The notes under the pieces: model-generated | Database searches by the model: none | Told to the model about the DNA's origin: nothing | What the model saw: only the letters and a program-made list of their open reading frames with translations | Origin: Candidatus Fervidifonticultor secundus | Lineage (GTDB): Bacteria > Sysuimicrobiota > Sysuimicrobiia > Sysuimicrobiales > Humicultoraceae | Assembly (NCBI GenBank): GCA_031459385.1 | Contig: JAVKIP010000002.1 | Coordinates: 32,355 to 96,354 of the forward strand | Length of the DNA stretch: 64,000 nucleotides | Reading direction: 5' to 3' | Shown here: positions 19,863 to 61,034 of the stretch, piece by piece | How positions within the stretch are numbered: the stretch's first letter is position 1 | Layout of the letters: each line of letters begins with the position of its first letter | Position numbers and translations under genes: made by a program

Positions 19863-20383
19863 CCACCCTGGAAGGTCGGCGCGTCGCCGTCCTCACCGCC
19901 AGCGAGACCGTGGCCCGAGGGGCGGGCACCGATACCAGCGGCGATGTGGTGGTAGAGCGCCTGACCGCCATGGGCGCTGAGATCGTGGCGCGGGACGTGG
20001 TCCGCGACGACCGGGCGGTCATCGCCCAGCGCCTGCGCGCCTACGCCGACGACCTGGGTGTGGCGCTCGTGCTGACCACCGGCGGCAGCGGTCTCTCCCC
20101 CACTGACGTGACGCCCGAGGCCACGCTGGACGTGGTGGAACGACTCGTCCCCGGGCTCCCGGAGGCAGCGCGCCAGCGCACCGCGGCCGCAGCCCCCCTG
20201 GCCGTGCTCTCGCGCGGGGTCGCGGGCATCCGCGGGCGCACGCTCATCGTGAACCTGCCAGGCAGCCCCCGGGCCGTGCGCGAGTGGCTGGACGTTCTCC
20301 TGCCGGTGCTGCCGCACGCGCTAGCGCTGCTCGGCGGCGAGTCGCCCCCCTGGGGCCAGGAGCACCGCACGGACATCCGGTGA
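19859..20383 (+). CDS. mog: Molybdopterin adenylyltransferase (MogA/MoaB family)
   Basis: DTSG, TTGGSG..DVTPEAT, SRGVAGIR and NLPGSP. GAGGAG SD. Confidence 0.9.
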   Translation: MTTLEGRRVAVLTASETVARGAGTDTSGDVVVERLTAMGAEIVARDVVRDDRAVIAQRLRAYADDLGVALVLTTGGSGLSPTDVTPEATLDVVERLVPGLPEAARQRTAAAAPLAVLSRGVAGIRGRTLIVNLPGSPRAVREWLDVLLPVLPHALALLGGESPPWGQEHRTDIR

Positions 20384-21816
20384 GCGACCCCGGACCACCG
20401 TGGAGCCGGTGGGAGCGGCGCTGGACCCTGCTGCTCCTGGGAGCCGTCGCACTCAGTCTGGCTGGCCTGGGCCTGCCATCGTTGCAGGGCGACGACGTCT
20501 TCTACGGTGCCATCGCGCGGCACATCGTCGCCTCCGGCGAGTGGATCACGCTGACCCATCCCGACCATCCCGGGTGGCTGGTGGACAAGCCGCCCCTGAC
20601 GTTCTGGCTCATGGCCATCTCGCTGCGCCTGGGGGGCGACCACCCCGGGGTGCTGCGCTTCTGGCACGTGGGGCTCGCCCTGGCCACGGTAGCCGCGACG
20701 TGGCGGCTCGGCCGGCGTGCGCTGGGGCGCGAGGGCGGAGTGCTGGCCGCGCTGTTGCTGGGGACCAGCGGGCAGTTCTTCTACGTGGCCTTCGATCCGG
20801 CACAGGACATCCCCCTGACGTTCTTCCTGACCGTGGCCATGCTGGCCTACACCGACTACCGGGCCGGGGCCGGCGTGCGCGCCGCGGTGCTGACAGGACT
20901 GGCTGTCGCGCTGGCGGTGCTGACCAAAGGCATCGTGGCGCTCGTCGTGTTCGGACTGGTGGTCGCCGGCGATCTGGGGCTGCCGCCGTGCGGCGGGGCC
21001 TGGCGCTGGCGCGACGTCTGCGCCGGTGCCGCCGTCTTCCTGGCGGTGGCATCGCCATGGTTCGTCGCGGGTGCGCTCCGGGGCGGGCGGCCGTTCGTCG
21101 ACACGTTCTTCCTCTGGGGCCCGTTGGGCGTCGGGCGCTTCTTCCAGGGCGTGACGGCCAGGATGCCCTACGGGCAGGCGCTGGTGATCTTCGTGCCGAC
21201 GCTGATGGTGGGCGTCCTGCCGTGGACGGGGCTGCTCCCCGGGGCGGTGCGCGAGGGGTGGCGGGCCGTGCGCGGCGGCGCGCCGATCCTGCGCGTCTGC
21301 GCCCTGTGGGCGGGCCTCTACTTCCTGCTGCTGTCGCTGTCGCCAGGGGACAAGATGATGCACCACCTGCTGCCGCTCTATCCGGCAGCGATGGTCCTCG
21401 CCGCGCGCTTCGTGCTGGCCGCCGACGGGGATCCCCTGCGCCTGCGCGCGTCCGCAGGCGTGGCGCTGGCGGCCATCGTCCCGGCCGTCGCCGGTCTGGT
21501 CATCATGCGCCTGCGCTACCCCGAGACAGCCGGCGCCGTGCTGCCGGCGGCCGCGCCGTTCGTGCTCGGGTTGCTGGCCGCGCTGGGGGCGTTCGCCGCC
21601 CGTGCCCTCCGGGGCCGTGCGCGCGAAGCGGTGGCGCTCGCCGGGGCGGCGATACTGGTCGCGCACGGGTTTGCCGAGGCGCTGGTGTTGCGTCGCTGGG
21701 ACGCGTTCGCGCCAGCTGGGCGTCCCACCGCGCCGCCGGTGCTCCGGCAGGGTGGAGCCCCAAGCGGTGATCTGGTGGGACGGGGTGTGGTGGGGGCGCG
21801 TGGCGGCTTGCCTTGA
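20380..21816 (+). CDS. ArnT-like GT-C membrane glycosyltransferase (PMT_2)
   Basis: DDVFYGAIAR, DKPPLTFW, LTKG, PWF and LPW motifs with many TM helices. Confidence 0.85.
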   Translation: MSDPGPPWSRWERRWTLLLLGAVALSLAGLGLPSLQGDDVFYGAIARHIVASGEWITLTHPDHPGWLVDKPPLTFWLMAISLRLGGDHPGVLRFWHVGLALATVAATWRLGRRALGREGGVLAALLLGTSGQFFYVAFDPAQDIPLTFFLTVAMLAYTDYRAGAGVRAAVLTGLAVALAVLTKGIVALVVFGLVVAGDLGLPPCGGAWRWRDVCAGAAVFLAVASPWFVAGALRGGRPFVDTFFLWGPLGVGRFFQGVTARMPYGQALVIFVPTLMVGVLPWTGLLPGAVREGWRAVRGGAPILRVCALWAGLYFLLLSLSPGDKMMHHLLPLYPAAMVLAARFVLAADGDPLRLRASAGVALAAIVPAVAGLVIMRLRYPETAGAVLPAAAPFVLGLLAALGAFAARALRGRAREAVALAGAAILVAHGFAEALVLRRWDAFAPAGRPTAPPVLRQGGAPSGDLVGRGVVGARGGLP

Positions 21817-21842
21817 CGCTGGCAGATGGCGACCGATATAAT
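21813..21842 (+). promoter_or_regulatory. sigma70/sigmaA promoter driving the T-box leader
   Basis: TTGACG(21813-18)-N18-TATAAT(21837-42). The -35 overlaps the upstream gene's TGA. Confidence 0.85.
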
Positions 21843-22042
21843 TGCACGAGATTTCCGCCATATCGGCGACGAACGGGAGCAGTAGGCCGGAAGTCTGCCT
21901 GCGAGCGAGCCGGTGGAGGGTGCGAACCGGCGGCAGGCCCGGCTGAACTCGCCCGGGAGCCGCGGGCGCGAACGCGTCGCGGACGCGACGCCAAGCGTCC
22001 GCCGCCTGGCCCGCGAGACGGGTCTAGAGTGGATGGACGCAC

Positions 22043-22117
22043 GGGGCAGTAGCTCAGCGGGAGAGCGCCCGCTTGGCGTGCGGGAGGTCGAGGGTTCAAT
22101 TCCCTCCTGCTCCACCA
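22043..22117 (+). tRNA. tRNA-Ala (anticodon GGC), nested within the T-box leader
   Basis: Full cloverleaf: GGGGCAG/CTGCTCC acceptor with G3.U70, GCTC/GAGC D-stem, CCCGC-TTGGCGT-GCGGG anticodon arm, GAGGG-TTCAATT-CCCTC T-arm, A73 and encoded CCA. Confidence 0.96.
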
Positions 22118-22153
22118 GCGTGATCGGCGCGTCCGTCAACCGGGGTGGTACCG

Positions 22154-22199
22154 CGGAGGCCGCCTTCGCCCTTGGGGAGGAGGCGGCGCGCCGTTTTTT
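22154..22199 (+). terminator. T-box intrinsic terminator (mutually exclusive with the antiterminator)
   Basis: GCCGCCTTC(22159-67) pairs with GGAGGCGGC(22179-87), extendable to 22154/22193, followed by TTTTTT at 22194-99. Confidence 0.85.
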
Positions 22200-22213
22200 G
22201 GGAGGAGAGCGGG

Positions 22214-23146
22214 ATGCAGCCATCGAGTCGGGTCTGGTTTGACGGCAAGCTGGTGCCGTGGGACGAGGCCACGGTGCACGTCGCAGCCCACGTCATCCAG
22301 TACGGGTCCAGCGTCTTCGAGGGCATCCGCTGCTACGAGACGGCGAGCGGGCCCGCGATCTTCTGCCTGACCCCGCACCTGCGGCGCCTGGAGGACTCGT
22401 GCAAGATCTTCCGCATGGCGCTGCCCTACACGACCGAGGATCTCGCCCGGGCGATCCTCGAGACCGTGGGGGTCAACGGGCACCGGTCGTGCTACATCCG
22501 CCCGGTGGTGTTCCGGGGCGTGGAGTCGTGGAGCGTGGAGCCGCGCCGCTCGCCGCTGCACGTGGCCATCATCACCATCGAGTGGGGGCGCTATCTGGGG
22601 CCCGAGGCGATCGAGCAGGGCGTCGACGTCATGGTGAGCTCGTGGCGGCGCATGGCCCCCGATACGCACCCTGGCATGGGCAAGATCGGCGGGAACTACG
22701 TCAACTCGGCGTTTGTCGTCATGGAGGCGGTGGACAACGGGTACGCCGAGGGGATCGCCCTGGACGTGTACGGGTACGTCAGCGAGGGCAGCGGGGAGAA
22801 CGTGTTCGTGGTGCGCGACGGCGTGATCTACACGCCACCGCTGGCCGCCTCAATTCTCAGCGGCGTGACGCGTATGGTGGTCACGACGCTGTGCCGCGAC
22901 TTGGGCATCGAGGTGCGGGAGATCCCGATCCCCCGCGAGTTGCTCTACGTGGCCGACGAGGTCTTCTTCACCGGGACCGCCGCAGAGATCACCCCGGTGC
23001 GGTCGGTGGACAAGGTGCGCATCGGCGGCGGGACCCGCGGACCGGTCACGCGGCGGCTGCAGGAGGAGTTCTTCGGTATCGTCGAAGGCCGGATTCCCGA
23101 CCGGCACGGCTGGCTCACGGCCGTGCCCGTCCTGAGCCGGCCGTAG
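22214..23146 (+). CDS. ilvE: Branched-chain amino acid aminotransferase
   Basis: YGSSVFEGIRCY, YIRP, KIGGNY (PLP Lys), EGSGEN, LSGVTR and GTAAEITP. GGAGG SD. Confidence 0.96.
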   Translation: MQPSSRVWFDGKLVPWDEATVHVAAHVIQYGSSVFEGIRCYETASGPAIFCLTPHLRRLEDSCKIFRMALPYTTEDLARAILETVGVNGHRSCYIRPVVFRGVESWSVEPRRSPLHVAIITIEWGRYLGPEAIEQGVDVMVSSWRRMAPDTHPGMGKIGGNYVNSAFVVMEAVDNGYAEGIALDVYGYVSEGSGENVFVVRDGVIYTPPLAASILSGVTRMVVTTLCRDLGIEVREIPIPRELLYVADEVFFTGTAAEITPVRSVDKVRIGGGTRGPVTRRLQEEFFGIVEGRIPDRHGWLTAVPVLSRP

Positions 23147-23171: not shown

Positions 23172-25622
23172 ATGCGGTACGATCACCGGACCGTCGAGGC
23201 GAAGTGGCAGGCGCGGTGGGAGGCCGACCGGCTGTACCACGCGCCGGACTTCGACCCGCGGCCCAAGTTCTACTTCCTGACGATGTACCCGTATCCGTCG
23301 GGGGACGGGCTGCACATCGGCCACTGGTACGCCATGGCGCCCTCCGATGCGGCCGCGCGCTACAAGCGGATGCGGGGGTACAACGTGATGCTCCCCATGG
23401 GCTTCGACGCCTTCGGGCTGCCGGCGGAGAACGCCGCGATCAGCCGGGGCGTCCACCCGTACCGGTGGACGATGGACAACATCGCCCGGATGCGCCAGCA
23501 ACTGCGCTCCATGGGCGCGATGTGGGACTGGGACCGCGAGATCGTGACCTGCCAGCCCGAGTACTACCGGTGGAACCAGTGGTTCTTCCTGAAGATGTAC
23601 GAGCGCGGCCTGGCCTACCGCGCGCTGGCGCCGGTGGACTGGTGCCCGAAGGACAACACCACGCTGGCCCGCGAGCAGGTGGTGGGCGACGAGCGCGTCT
23701 GCGAGCGGTGCGGGACGCCGGTGGTCAAGAAGAACCTGGAGCAGTGGTTCCTGAAGATCACGGCGTACGCCGACGAGCTGCTCGACTTCTCGACGATCCA
23801 GTGGCCCGAACGCGTCGTCACGCTCCAGCGGAACTGGATCGGGCGCAGCGACGGGGTGGAGTTCGCCCTCGAGGTCCGCGGGCACCCCGGCGTGACGTTC
23901 CGGGTGTTCACCACCCGGCCCGACACCGTCTTCGGCATGACGTTCTGCGTGCTGGCGCCGGAGCACCCGCTGGTCGACCGCCTGGTGACCCCCGACCGGC
24001 GGGCGGTGGTGGACGCCTACAAGTTCAAGGCCGCGCGCGAGTCGGACATCGAGCGCCTGTCCACCGAGAAGGAGCGCGACGGGGTCTTCATCGGCGCCTA
24101 TGCCCTCAATCCCATGAACGGCGCCGCGGTGCCCATCTACATCGCGGACTACGTGCTGCTGACCTACGGCACCGGCGCCATCATGGGTGTGCCCGCGCAC
24201 GATGCCCGCGACTTCGACTTCGCCCGCAAGTACGGGCTACCCATTCCGGTGGTGGTGGCGCCGCCGGGGTGGGACGGGCAGCCGCTCGCCGCCGCGTACC
24301 TCGGCGAGGGGACGATGGTGAACTCGGGCGAGTTCGACGGCCTGCCCTCAACCGTGGCGTGGCAGCGCATCGCCGACGCCATGGTGGCCCGCGGCATCGG
24401 CGAGCGGAAGGTGCACTACCGCCTCCACGACTGGCTGATCAGCCGCCAGCGCTACTTCGGCACGCCGATCCCCATCGTCTACTGCGGCCACTGCGGTATC
24501 GTGCCGGTGCCGGAGGAGGACCTGCCGGTGGTGCTGCCCGAGGACGCGGAGTTCCGCCCGACCGGCGAGTCCCCCCTGAAGTACCACGACGGATTCCGGC
24601 GCACGACCTGCCCCCGGTGCGGGGCGGAGGCCGAGCGCGAGACGGACACTATGGATACCTTCGTGGACTCCTCCTGGTACCAGTACCGCTACCTGAGCCC
24701 GCACGACAGCCAGCGGCCGTTCGATCCTGCCGTGGGGCGGTACTGGCTACCCGTCGACCAGTACACCGGCGGCGTGGAGCACGCCGTCATGCACCTGCTG
24801 TACACGCGGTTCTGGACCAAGGTGATGCGCGACCTCGGGCTGGTCACGTTCGACGAGCCGATGCTGCGGTTGTTCAACCAGGGCATCATCCTGGGCCCCG
24901 ACGGCCATCGCATGAGCAAGTCCCGGGGAAACGTCGTCAATCCCGATGAGCTCGTGGCCGCGCATGGCGCCGACGTGGTCCGCGCGTACCTGATGTTCAT
25001 CGGTCCGTGGGACGAGGGCGGCCCGTGGGATCCCCAGGGCATCGGCGGGATCGTGCGCTTCCTGGGCCGGGTCTGGAGCCTCGTGACCCAGACCGCCAGC
25101 CGCACGCCGGCCGGAGCCCCCGACGGCGGCGCGGACCGCGAGCTGGAGTACTGGGTACACCGTACGATCGCACGGGTCACGGCCGACCTGGAAGAGTTCC
25201 GGTTCCACACCGCCCTGGCGGCCCTCATGGAGTTCACCAACACGTTGCAGCGGCTGCGGGAGGCCCTGGCCGCGACGGTGGCCTGGCAGGCGGCCCTGCG
25301 GACGCTGGTGCTCCTGCTCGCGCCGTTCTGCCCGCACATGGCGGAGGAGCTCTGGGTGGAGCATCTCGGAGAGGCCTACAGCGTCCACACCCAGGCATGG
25401 CCCGCCTACGATCCCGCGAAGGCCGTCGCCGAGCACCAGACGCTGGTGCTCCAGGTCGACGGCCGGGTGCGCGACCGCATCCAGGTGCCGGCCGGCATCA
25501 GCGACGAGGAGGCGCGGGCGCGGGCGCTGTCGAACCCGCGGGTGCGTCAGTTCATTGACGGCCGGCAGGTCGCCAGCATCATCGTTGTGCCAGGGCGCCT
25601 GGTCAACGTCGTGACGCGCTGA
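23172..25622 (+). CDS. leuS: Leucine--tRNA ligase
   Basis: YPYPSG..LHIGH, GFDAFGLPAEN, FTTRPDT editing domain, SRQRY, DTMDTF and RMSKS. Confidence 0.98.
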   Translation: MRYDHRTVEAKWQARWEADRLYHAPDFDPRPKFYFLTMYPYPSGDGLHIGHWYAMAPSDAAARYKRMRGYNVMLPMGFDAFGLPAENAAISRGVHPYRWTMDNIARMRQQLRSMGAMWDWDREIVTCQPEYYRWNQWFFLKMYERGLAYRALAPVDWCPKDNTTLAREQVVGDERVCERCGTPVVKKNLEQWFLKITAYADELLDFSTIQWPERVVTLQRNWIGRSDGVEFALEVRGHPGVTFRVFTTRPDTVFGMTFCVLAPEHPLVDRLVTPDRRAVVDAYKFKAARESDIERLSTEKERDGVFIGAYALNPMNGAAVPIYIADYVLLTYGTGAIMGVPAHDARDFDFARKYGLPIPVVVAPPGWDGQPLAAAYLGEGTMVNSGEFDGLPSTVAWQRIADAMVARGIGERKVHYRLHDWLISRQRYFGTPIPIVYCGHCGIVPVPEEDLPVVLPEDAEFRPTGESPLKYHDGFRRTTCPRCGAEAERETDTMDTFVDSSWYQYRYLSPHDSQRPFDPAVGRYWLPVDQYTGGVEHAVMHLLYTRFWTKVMRDLGLVTFDEPMLRLFNQGIILGPDGHRMSKSRGNVVNPDELVAAHGADVVRAYLMFIGPWDEGGPWDPQGIGGIVRFLGRVWSLVTQTASRTPAGAPDGGADRELEYWVHRTIARVTADLEEFRFHTALAALMEFTNTLQRLREALAATVAWQAALRTLVLLLAPFCPHMAEELWVEHLGEAYSVHTQAWPAYDPAKAVAEHQTLVLQVDGRVRDRIQVPAGISDEEARARALSNPRVRQFIDGRQVASIIVVPGRLVNVVTR

Positions 25623-60957: not shown

Positions 60958-61034
60958 CGGGCCGTAGCGCAGCTTGGTAGCGCGCCTGAATGGGGTTCAG
61001 GAGGTCGGCGGTTCAAGTCCGCCCGGCCCGACCA
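60958..61034 (+). tRNA. tRNA-Pro (anticodon GGG)
   Basis: CGGGCCG/CGGCCCG acceptor, CCTGA-ATGGGGT-TCAGG anticodon arm, GGCGG-TTCAAGT-CCGCC T-arm and ACCA end. Confidence 0.97.

Follow-up and report, generated by a model that had tools for sequence, protein, structure and literature searches.

A complete tRNA-Ala(GGC) gene within Stem III of a predicted leucine T-box leader of the ilvE-leuS genes in Candidatus Fervidifonticultor secundus

In the 64,000-nucleotide stretch of the Candidatus Fervidifonticultor secundus genome analyzed here (GCA_031459385.1, contig JAVKIP010000002.1, positions 32,355 to 96,354 of the forward strand; the whole of it is called the window below), the leader of the ilvE and leuS genes contains a gene for an alanine transfer RNA (tRNA), tRNA-Ala(GGC). 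Comparative analysis suggests that this leader is probably a working transcriptional T-box, which recognizes tRNA-Leu(GAG), controls ilvE-leuS, and has its Stem III extended by a complete and functional tRNA-Ala(GGC) gene. The leader transcript seems to be both a regulator and a tRNA precursor. Such an architecture had been proposed in an earlier note on this DNA, and all the elements listed there, namely the promoter, Stem I, Stem II, a IIA/B-like hairpin, the two flanks of the tRNA, and the T-box consensus, were found at the positions given in Table 1.

The T-box model of Rfam (RF00230) was aligned globally to the leader, from model position 1 to 219 of 219, with 49.7 bits (expect value, E, of 5e-10 in an E-value search of positions 21780-22260). 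This alignment placed 92 nucleotides (nt) in the Stem III loop versus 5 in the consensus and, being full-length across the 92-nt insert, it bears out the assignment of the tRNA to that loop in the earlier note. The expected elements of a T-box are present: the specifier loop in Stem I, the distal AG bulge/platform, Stem III flanked by RRRNG and AA, and the UGGU bulge. The first flank corresponds to the conserved motif on the 5' side of Stem III that is quoted in an excerpt of PMC7778990. The specifier CUC and the bulge UGGU both match tRNA-Leu(GAG), which is encoded in the genome; the bulge (22146-22149) can pair with the terminal ACCA of this tRNA, the gene of which ends in ...GGCACCA. The sequence context of the specifier (GAA-CUC-G) and the Aminotran_4 and LeuRS domains of the downstream gene products likewise support the note's reading of a Leu(CUC) T-box ahead of ilvE-leuS. 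We also considered the embedded tRNA-Ala as a ligand of its own switch in cis and dropped this idea, because the anticodon GGC is unable to pair with the specifier CUC.

The sequences GATGGACGC and GCGTCCGTC on the two sides of the tRNA form nine pairs including one U.G, and the predicted fold is a single helix enclosing the tRNA. This helix is followed by AA and then by the T-box core CCGGGGTGGTACCGCG, the distance from the tRNA 3' end to this AA being 20 nt in total. The terminator-like hairpin further downstream has a predicted energy of about -25 kcal/mol and overlaps the 3' strand of the antiterminator. Stem I starts 24 nt after a sigma-70-type promoter, which is the only promoter-like site found in 21400-22500 by a consensus scan (versus a mean of 0.0 in shuffled sequences). 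A separate promoter between the tRNA and the T-box sequence, which the earlier note had named as a potential objection, was not seen: the same scan gave no second site in this region and none from Stem I to ilvE, and other promoter types may escape it. A promoter within the linkers is unlikely, because they are too short to hold one.

The nested gene is intact, as the earlier note had read it, and is recognized by both ARAGORN and Rfam (Table 1). It has the cloverleaf, A73, an encoded CCA, and G3:U70, the identity pair of tRNA-Ala. Among the 56 tRNAs called by ARAGORN in the whole genome it is the sole Ala(GGC) gene, as the earlier note had suggested checking; the assembly is a draft of 59 contigs (97.6% complete, 5.5% contamination), and thus a copy may have been missed. 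Ala(CGC) and Ala(UGC) are represented by one gene each elsewhere in the genome. GCC is the most frequent alanine codon in ilvE and leuS taken together (56 of 102), and the genome encodes the RNA of ribonuclease P (RNase P; 263.9 bits). At the homologous loci described below, pair 3:70 is GU in 110 of 112 aligned rows, which include 13 other tRNAs, and CCA is encoded at the nested tRNA in 122 of 142 loci. A BLAST search with one tRNA in five named genomes detected one Ala(GGC) locus in each of three. In Tengunoibacter a tRNA array contains a further Ala(GGC) call, and in Desulfitispora the search missed even the nested tRNA. The Rfam model of transfer-messenger RNA (tmRNA; RF00023) also matches the nested tRNA, in the window and at many other loci, with 40-46 bits. 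These scores are just below the cut-off of 47. As the tRNA-like domain of tmRNA resembles tRNA-Ala, such a near-match is expected, and the nested gene is not a tmRNA.

Covariation of the enclosing helix, the check on Stem III put forward in the earlier note, was assessed in two ways. When pairs were counted inward from the RRRNG and AA anchors in 142 loci, the mean uninterrupted run was 5.67 pairs for cognate arms versus 2.95 in 20,000 non-cognate pairings. The helix occurs in 72 distinct sequences in these loci. Where the run reaches at least 5 pairs (103 loci), the median gap between arm and tRNA does not exceed 5 nt on the 5' side or 7 nt on the 3' side. A covariance model that combined Stem III with the cloverleaf, built from the window and 17 close relatives, matched 100 of 100 sources over its full length, and also matched 13 other tRNAs. 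In the resulting alignment, which was fitted to the structure by the model and is thus biased toward pairing, 89.0% of 776 Stem III cells are paired; the corresponding values are 62.6% in shuffled sets, with none of 500 reaching the observed one, and 21-45% when the partner is slid. Cells that show changes on both sides number 217 versus 65 in shuffled sets (again none of 500 as high) and 8-47 with the partner slid, and the covariation score is 0.435 versus 0.141 and 0.024-0.056, respectively. Changes on both sides occur at all nine Stem III pairs, a count that does not discriminate, as it is also reached by 97 of 500 shuffles. The rows of the alignment are mutually related, and the pairing counts are lowered by the 13 unrelated tRNA rows and by several misplaced 5' arms.

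Free duplex folding of the 45 nt upstream of the tRNA against the trailer hardly separates the sets (-15.1 kcal/mol for cognate, -12.7 for shuffled, and -12.4 for non-cognate pairs); the anchored count and the covariance model were preferred to it, because the flanks hold other pairing partners. For the 9-bp duplex formed by the arms alone, the predicted energies are -14.8 kcal/mol (37 C) and -8.3 kcal/mol (65 C). A MAFFT alignment, in which the inner Stem III columns of families f3 and f5 were misplaced, was excluded from the counts.

The same arrangement recurs in related genomes, where the earlier note had advised looking for it. In 94 genomes of the phylum we looked for the T-box core at a distance of 25-55 nt after a tRNA T-arm; the counts include one unpublished genome (G024), on which alone no claim rests. 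The pattern is present in 39 genomes from 15 of 31 genera, and a reversed-pattern control gave 0. The 39 loci comprise 36 tRNA-Ala(GGC) genes, 2 loci ended by a contig break inside the tRNA, and 1 unrelated tRNA-Leu(CAG) (L044), which was not counted as its anticodon differs; the sequence upstream of it is without Stem I motifs. Fourteen of 32 pattern-negative genomes, from families f1, f2, f3, and f5, also have the nested gene, with additional hairpins of 40-130 nt in the 3' linker or a contig end at this place, so that nesting is found in 50 of the 94 genomes in total. Of 20 phylum loci tested with Rfam, 18 have a T-box match; it extends across the tRNA in most cases and covers 462 nt overall in one. 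Among 36 phylum loci, 34 have ilvE and 2 have leuS as the first downstream gene, and GAACUC is retained in the relatives inspected.

Local variation was observed in the phylum loci. At L226, L228, L231, L233, L234, and L235, GC-rich palindromic inserts of 40-130 nt separate the tRNA from the Stem III 3' arm; some of the loci of this group have them 5' of the tRNA as well. The inserts share motifs such as TGCACCACTCGCT...GGTTCAGGGC and resemble small repeat elements that have entered the Stem III loop. At L031 (genome G032) the distal half of Stem I is absent, with AGTAGGCAGCGGCCGAACTCG continuous, which is explained either by a variant with a short Stem I or by a deletion in the assembly.

Beyond the phylum, bacteria and archaea were searched with this pattern, each species being represented by one genome; at least 120 loci were obtained, a few of which are duplicates of the phylum set. 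Among the 120 matches listed, 108 are tRNA-Ala(GGC), 9 are without a tRNA call, and 3 are other tRNAs (Thr, Glu, and Leu). The tRNA-Thr (L091), tRNA-Glu (L102), and tRNA-Leu(CAG) (L162) were not counted as nesting, since their anticodons differ. According to record titles, the matches listed include Chloroflexota (Thermomicrobiales, Ktedonobacteria, Limnocylindria, Anaerolineae, and Caldilineae), Bacillota (Syntrophomonadaceae, Peptococcaceae, Desulfotomaculum relatives, and Thermoanaerobacteraceae), and Coprothermobacterota. Strains named in these titles include Thermosyntropha lipolytica DSM 11003, Desulfotruncus alcoholivorax DSM 16058, Desulfofundulus thermosubterraneus DSM 16057, Tengunoibacter tsumagoiensis Uno3, and Desulfitispora alkaliphila DSM 22410. 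In a sample of 20 diverse loci, all 20 have a full-length T-box alignment across the tRNA, nine of them at or above 93 bits (maximum 133.2), and GAACUC is present in each. Relatives with low G+C content have canonical terminators at the same place. The constant combination of a Leu(CUC) T-box with tRNA-Ala(GGC) therefore points to one old event rather than to repeated accidents, as far as can be judged from comparison of sequences.

Among the matches listed, 106 wider-set loci were analyzed for the first downstream gene, which is leuS in 75 and ilvE in 10; in 21 loci there is none or it is too short. Five products from the latter group were scanned and turned out to be three GNAT acetyltransferases and two AMP-binding enzymes, which stand in place of leuS; the loci are L054, L062, and L098 (from Limnocylindria or Chloroflexota) and L065 and L094 (from Desulfotomaculum relatives). 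The first open reading frame (ORF) at L129 resembles those of the GNAT/AMP-binding loci.

A tRNA-Ala(CGC) gene lies at most 600 nt upstream on the same strand in 12 of the 99 loci having at least 600 nt of upstream sequence (L056, L074, L087, L088, L090, L092, L108, L111, L112, L121, L125, and L126). In four of them, all from Chloroflexota (L088, L092, L108, and L112), only 9-26 nt separate this tRNA from the start of the T-box alignment, and thus the aptamer domain forms the spacer between two tRNA-Ala genes. At L056 and L111 (Ktedonobacteria-type), a promoter-like sequence was observed between the tRNA-Ala(CGC) and the T-box.

Table 1. Features of the ilvE-leuS leader and the genes that follow it (window coordinates)
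Feature	Position	Strand	Basis
Sigma-70-type promoter, TTGACG-18-TATAAT	21813..21842	+	11/12 consensus matches
Whole T-box leader from Stem I to antiterminator, with the tRNA inside	21860..22176	+	Rfam RF00230 alignment
Stem I with AGUA/GAA loop motifs, AG bulge, and distal loop	21866..21960 (approximate)	+	RF00230 model positions 7-103
Specifier codon CUC (Leu), preceded by GAA and followed by G (GAA-CUC-G, 21945-21951)	21948..21950	+	Sequence and RF00230 alignment
Stem II and Stem IIA/B hairpin	21962..22015 (approximate)	+	Alignment only, RF00230 model positions about 105-150
GAGTG, fits the purine-rich RRRNG motif 5' of Stem III	22027..22031	+	Sequence; motif as given in an excerpt of PMC7778990
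Stem III 5' arm GATGGACGC, also 5' leader of the pre-tRNA	22032..22040	+	Sequence, folding, covariation
tRNA-Ala(GGC), 75 nt, anticodon 22075-22077	22043..22117	+	ARAGORN; Rfam RF00005, 68.8 bits (cut-off 29)
Stem III 3' arm GCGTCCGTC, also trailer of the pre-tRNA; followed by conserved AA, 22138-22139	22129..22137	+	Sequence, folding, covariation
T-box sequence and antiterminator	22140..22173	+	RF00230 alignment, including GGUGGUACCGCG
Terminator-like hairpin (22159-22187), then GCGCCG, then U6 (22194-22199)	22159..22199	+	Predicted folding
ilvE, branched-chain aminotransferase	22214..23146	+	Aminotran_4, E 4e-48
leuS, leucyl-tRNA synthetase	23172..25622	+	tRNA-synt_1_2 (E 6e-63), tRNA-synt_1, Anticodon_1

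The ilvE gene is preceded by the Shine-Dalgarno-like sequence GGGAGGAG at 22200-22207. A 606-aa ORF on the opposite strand (20044-21861) ends in the promoter region of the T-box; its product has no Pfam match, and given the high G+C content of this DNA it may not be a real gene. ARAGORN calls two tRNA genes in the window in all, the second being tRNA-Pro(GGG) at 60958-61034 on the forward strand (62.5 bits), with no T-box nearby.

The anatomy would allow both functions to be carried by one transcript. The single promoter at 21813-21842 would drive the whole unit, and the tRNA would be transcribed on every initiation and fold first. Stem III could close after the tRNA has been made, uniting in one structure the leader-trailer helix of the precursor (pre-tRNA) and the T-box helix. 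With its flanking purines, this helix would cradle the 3' end of the ligand tRNA, and the nested tRNA would project from its distal end, away from the ligand site, so that the switch should still be able to choose between the terminator and the antiterminator co-transcriptionally. As the tRNA would already be in the transcript whatever the decision, each initiation would give one pre-tRNA-Ala. When leucine is plentiful, this would be a pre-tRNA with the terminator hairpin as its 3' end; when tRNA-Leu is uncharged, it would be fused to the ilvE-leuS messenger RNA (mRNA). Release of the tRNA by RNase P and 3' processing would remove Stems I and II from the message, and the antiterminator/terminator hairpin would then be near the new mRNA 5' end.

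Several observations weigh against this interpretation, and to them belongs the bias of the covariation alignment mentioned above. The score of the leader is below the Rfam gathering cut-off of 93 bits, and at curated thresholds Rfam reports both tRNAs of the 64-kb window and no T-box, which is seen by the E-value search alone. A consensus terminator scan of the leader called no intrinsic terminator, because the U6 run starts 6 nt past the stem, a non-textbook geometry. In the genome G021 (locus L023), the promoter sequence TTGACG-17-TATAAT is located directly 5' of the tRNA, Stems I and II are gone, and no T-box is found by Rfam; Stem III, the T-box core, and ilvE-leuS are kept, and therefore the 5' domain of the T-box can be lost. 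In family f4, 21 of 23 genomes have a tRNA-Ala(GGC) with 85-89% identity as a free-standing gene with a TATAAT box of its own upstream; the T-box core is near none of these 21 tRNAs and within 1.5 kb of leuS in none of the 23 genomes, and nesting is thus not obligatory. The pairing of leader and trailer can hinder RNase P, and this may be the case here, where only 2 nt separate the paired arm of Stem III from tRNA position 1. Finally, none of the RNA runs holds more than 0.05 of the sampled words, and the contigs from RNA libraries, found in three studies, come from relatives that are 85-91% alike. These contigs bridge the tRNA and the T-box flanks: one of 162 nt covers 22031-22158, another of 231 nt covers 21903-22105, and the longest, of 339 nt, covers 22031-22183 and 22233-22342, so that it connects the Stem III 5' arm, the tRNA, the T-box, and ilvE. 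They prove neither transcription nor a single transcript, and the parts left uncovered carry no meaning; for unprocessed precursors they provide weak support.

Some further features of the f4 loci deserve mention. The ORF preceding the stand-alone tRNA is presumably rsfS-like, as judged from its C-terminal sequence. At L171-L191 and L197-L199, leuS has no T-box and, in several genomes, follows on the same strand of the contig at a distance of 3.5-12.5 kb. Three genomes (G059, G069, and G070) contain 47-54-nt copies of the 3' part of the tRNA 3.6-7.5 kb downstream, which look like the attachment-site-like repeats left by integrated elements. If these partial copies do mark integrated elements, a nested tRNA could expose the riboswitch to disruption.

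Four other explanations of the nested leader were compared with the one given above. The low T-box score, the atypical terminator geometry, the locus L023 with its lost 5' domain and retained 3' half, and the missing distal Stem I in G032 would all fit a relic, effectively a tRNA-Ala gene with a long leader and a terminator, in which the sensing of tRNA-Leu has been lost in this organism. We consider such a loss quite improbable, since the elements of the T-box, among them the CUC specifier, the UGGU bulge, and the RRRNG and AA sequences next to Stem III, are all intact and conserved, the pairing of Stem III is kept by compensatory changes, and the downstream genes fit the Leu specifier. Moreover, all 11 T-box matches of this genome, in which the G+C content is 72%, fall under the cut-off (the best has 64.3 bits), the ilvE-leuS leader ranking third among them, and the same spaced U run was found, by reading of the sequences, in three other T-box leaders of the genome (L001, L002, and L007). 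Hardly credible is the possibility that the insert is a tRNA-shaped structural mimic, never released and serving purely as an RNA domain of the riboswitch. The insert does lie within a riboswitch helix, with its 5' end almost flush with Stem III; but it is the sole Ala(GGC) gene of a genome in which GCC is the top alanine codon of ilvE and leuS, the full identity set and the CCA are kept, the G3:U70 pair is nearly invariant in the aligned rows, and the same tRNA is a stand-alone gene in family f4. An artefact of assembly, joining a contig with the tRNA to a contig with the T-box, is refuted for practical purposes. Although the genome is a contaminated draft and contigs of relatives often break in this tRNA (L030 and L024, the latter in genome G022, where the contig ends within the tRNA and the visible part is the 3' half of the T-box), the same junctions are present in 50 phylum genomes and at least 108 other loci from dozens of independent assemblies. 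The junctions themselves, suspected in the earlier note as possible chimeras, were recovered in a separate per-run assembly of hot-spring DNA. The four runs, all from one study, contain 0.78-0.95 of the sampled words and may include the source sample of the genome; zero-difference contigs from run X1 over 21800-22072, 22078-22176, and 22147-22400 span both junctions, although the three contigs leave a 5-base gap inside the tRNA.

The remaining alternative accepts both the switch and the tRNA, and adds an active coupling between them: RNase P and 3' processing would split the anticodon-reading domain from the acceptor-sensing domain, and thereby time or reset the switch, or stabilize the readthrough ilvE-leuS mRNA through a hairpin-protected 5' end. 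This is unlikely, though more probable than the three other alternatives. In its favor, the position of the tRNA is fixed within Stem III across several phyla, rather than being anywhere in the leader, the arms remain close to the tRNA, and the leader with its tRNA is kept even where the gene that follows encodes a GNAT acetyltransferase or an AMP-binding enzyme. The predicted stability of the 9-bp duplex makes a clamp conceivable, and precedents for cleavage, namely the thrS leader and RNase P cleavage of pbuE, are cited in an excerpt of PMC7913692. On the other hand, the conservation fits equally well one old insertion frozen by an essential tRNA and an insert-tolerant Stem III, extra hairpins of 40-130 nt adjoin the tRNA in several genomes, and family f4 and many other bacteria do without nesting. 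A related scheme, somewhat less doubtful and still no better than tentative, is a self-severing switch that works once. Maturation of the pre-tRNA would cut the sensor after each decision, free the essential tRNA-Ala, discard the anticodon-reading domain, and leave the ilvE-leuS mRNA with the hairpin as a cap protecting its 5' end; in the four loci where tRNA-Ala(CGC) ends 9-26 nt before the T-box alignment the aptamer would be trimmed from both sides.

The combination of a tRNA-Leu-sensing T-box with a functional tRNA-Ala gene in its Stem III, which we favor, bears on several questions. Riboswitches are treated as self-contained, and here an essential gene for another RNA resides inside a riboswitch helix and is retained across several phyla. 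Attenuated T-box transcripts may serve as tRNA precursors and not be waste, which would tie the supply of the tRNA that reads the commonest alanine codon to a strong constitutive promoter of the leader. The nested leaders offer a natural test of the tolerance of Stem III to foreign RNA, and allow the involvement of tRNA-processing enzymes in riboswitch turnover and mRNA stabilization to be tested. They are also of practical interest, as databases and pipelines assuming a short Stem III will under-score such leaders, as seen from the score obtained here. The earlier note knew of no riboswitch with this architecture, and our full-text literature search likewise did not turn up any account of a T-box with a tRNA gene in it, although a mention may exist in older comparative work on T-boxes.

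The leaders of tyrS, glyQS, and leuS in B. subtilis are canonical transcriptional T-boxes. The nested leader resembles the canonical T-box (RF00230) in several features: the specifier loop and distal platform of Stem I, hairpins that align with Stem II and IIA/B, a Stem III between RRRNG and AA, the UGGN bulge, predicted competing antiterminator and terminator structures, and an aminoacyl-tRNA synthetase gene downstream. It differs in Stem III, where a loop of about 5 nt is replaced by a 75-nt tRNA gene with linkers (92 nt), in that the embedded tRNA is specific for Ala and not for Leu, the amino acid sensed, and in not reaching the Rfam cut-off. Another comparison is with co-transcribed tRNAs, such as those upstream of tufB in E. 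coli, tRNA-Ile and tRNA-Ala in the spacers of ribosomal RNA operons, and the tRNA punctuation of mitochondrial transcripts. In all these units a tRNA is freed from a longer transcript bearing another functional RNA or mRNA; however, there the tRNA lies between functional units, whereas here it lies inside a regulatory RNA helix.

Cleavage of regulatory leaders has precedents as well. In an excerpt of PMC7913692, the thrS T-box leader of B. subtilis is cited as being cut just upstream of the terminator, which leaves a stabilizing 5' structure, and the pbuE adenine riboswitch as being cleaved by RNase P. In both cases, as in the model considered here, an endonucleolytic cut parts the sensor from the mRNA, and excision of the nested tRNA would leave a terminator hairpin at the 5' end similar to that of thrS. 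In contrast to them, the cut sites in the nested leader would be those of a bona fide pre-tRNA, and processing of the leader would then follow from tRNA maturation. Large insertions into T-box leaders are known from staphylococci: the S. aureus met leader has a 150-nt insert with three stem-loops between IIA/B and Stem III (excerpt of PMC7913692), and stem Sa of the staphylococcal glyS leader adds 42 nt in the terminator/antiterminator region (excerpt of PMC9177973). As described in these excerpts, both examples agree with the nested leader in that large extra RNA is tolerated in a functional T-box, and differ from it in being plain stem-loops, restricted to one genus, and located at other positions. 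The nested tRNA, by comparison, is an essential gene product, lies inside Stem III, and is common to several phyla.

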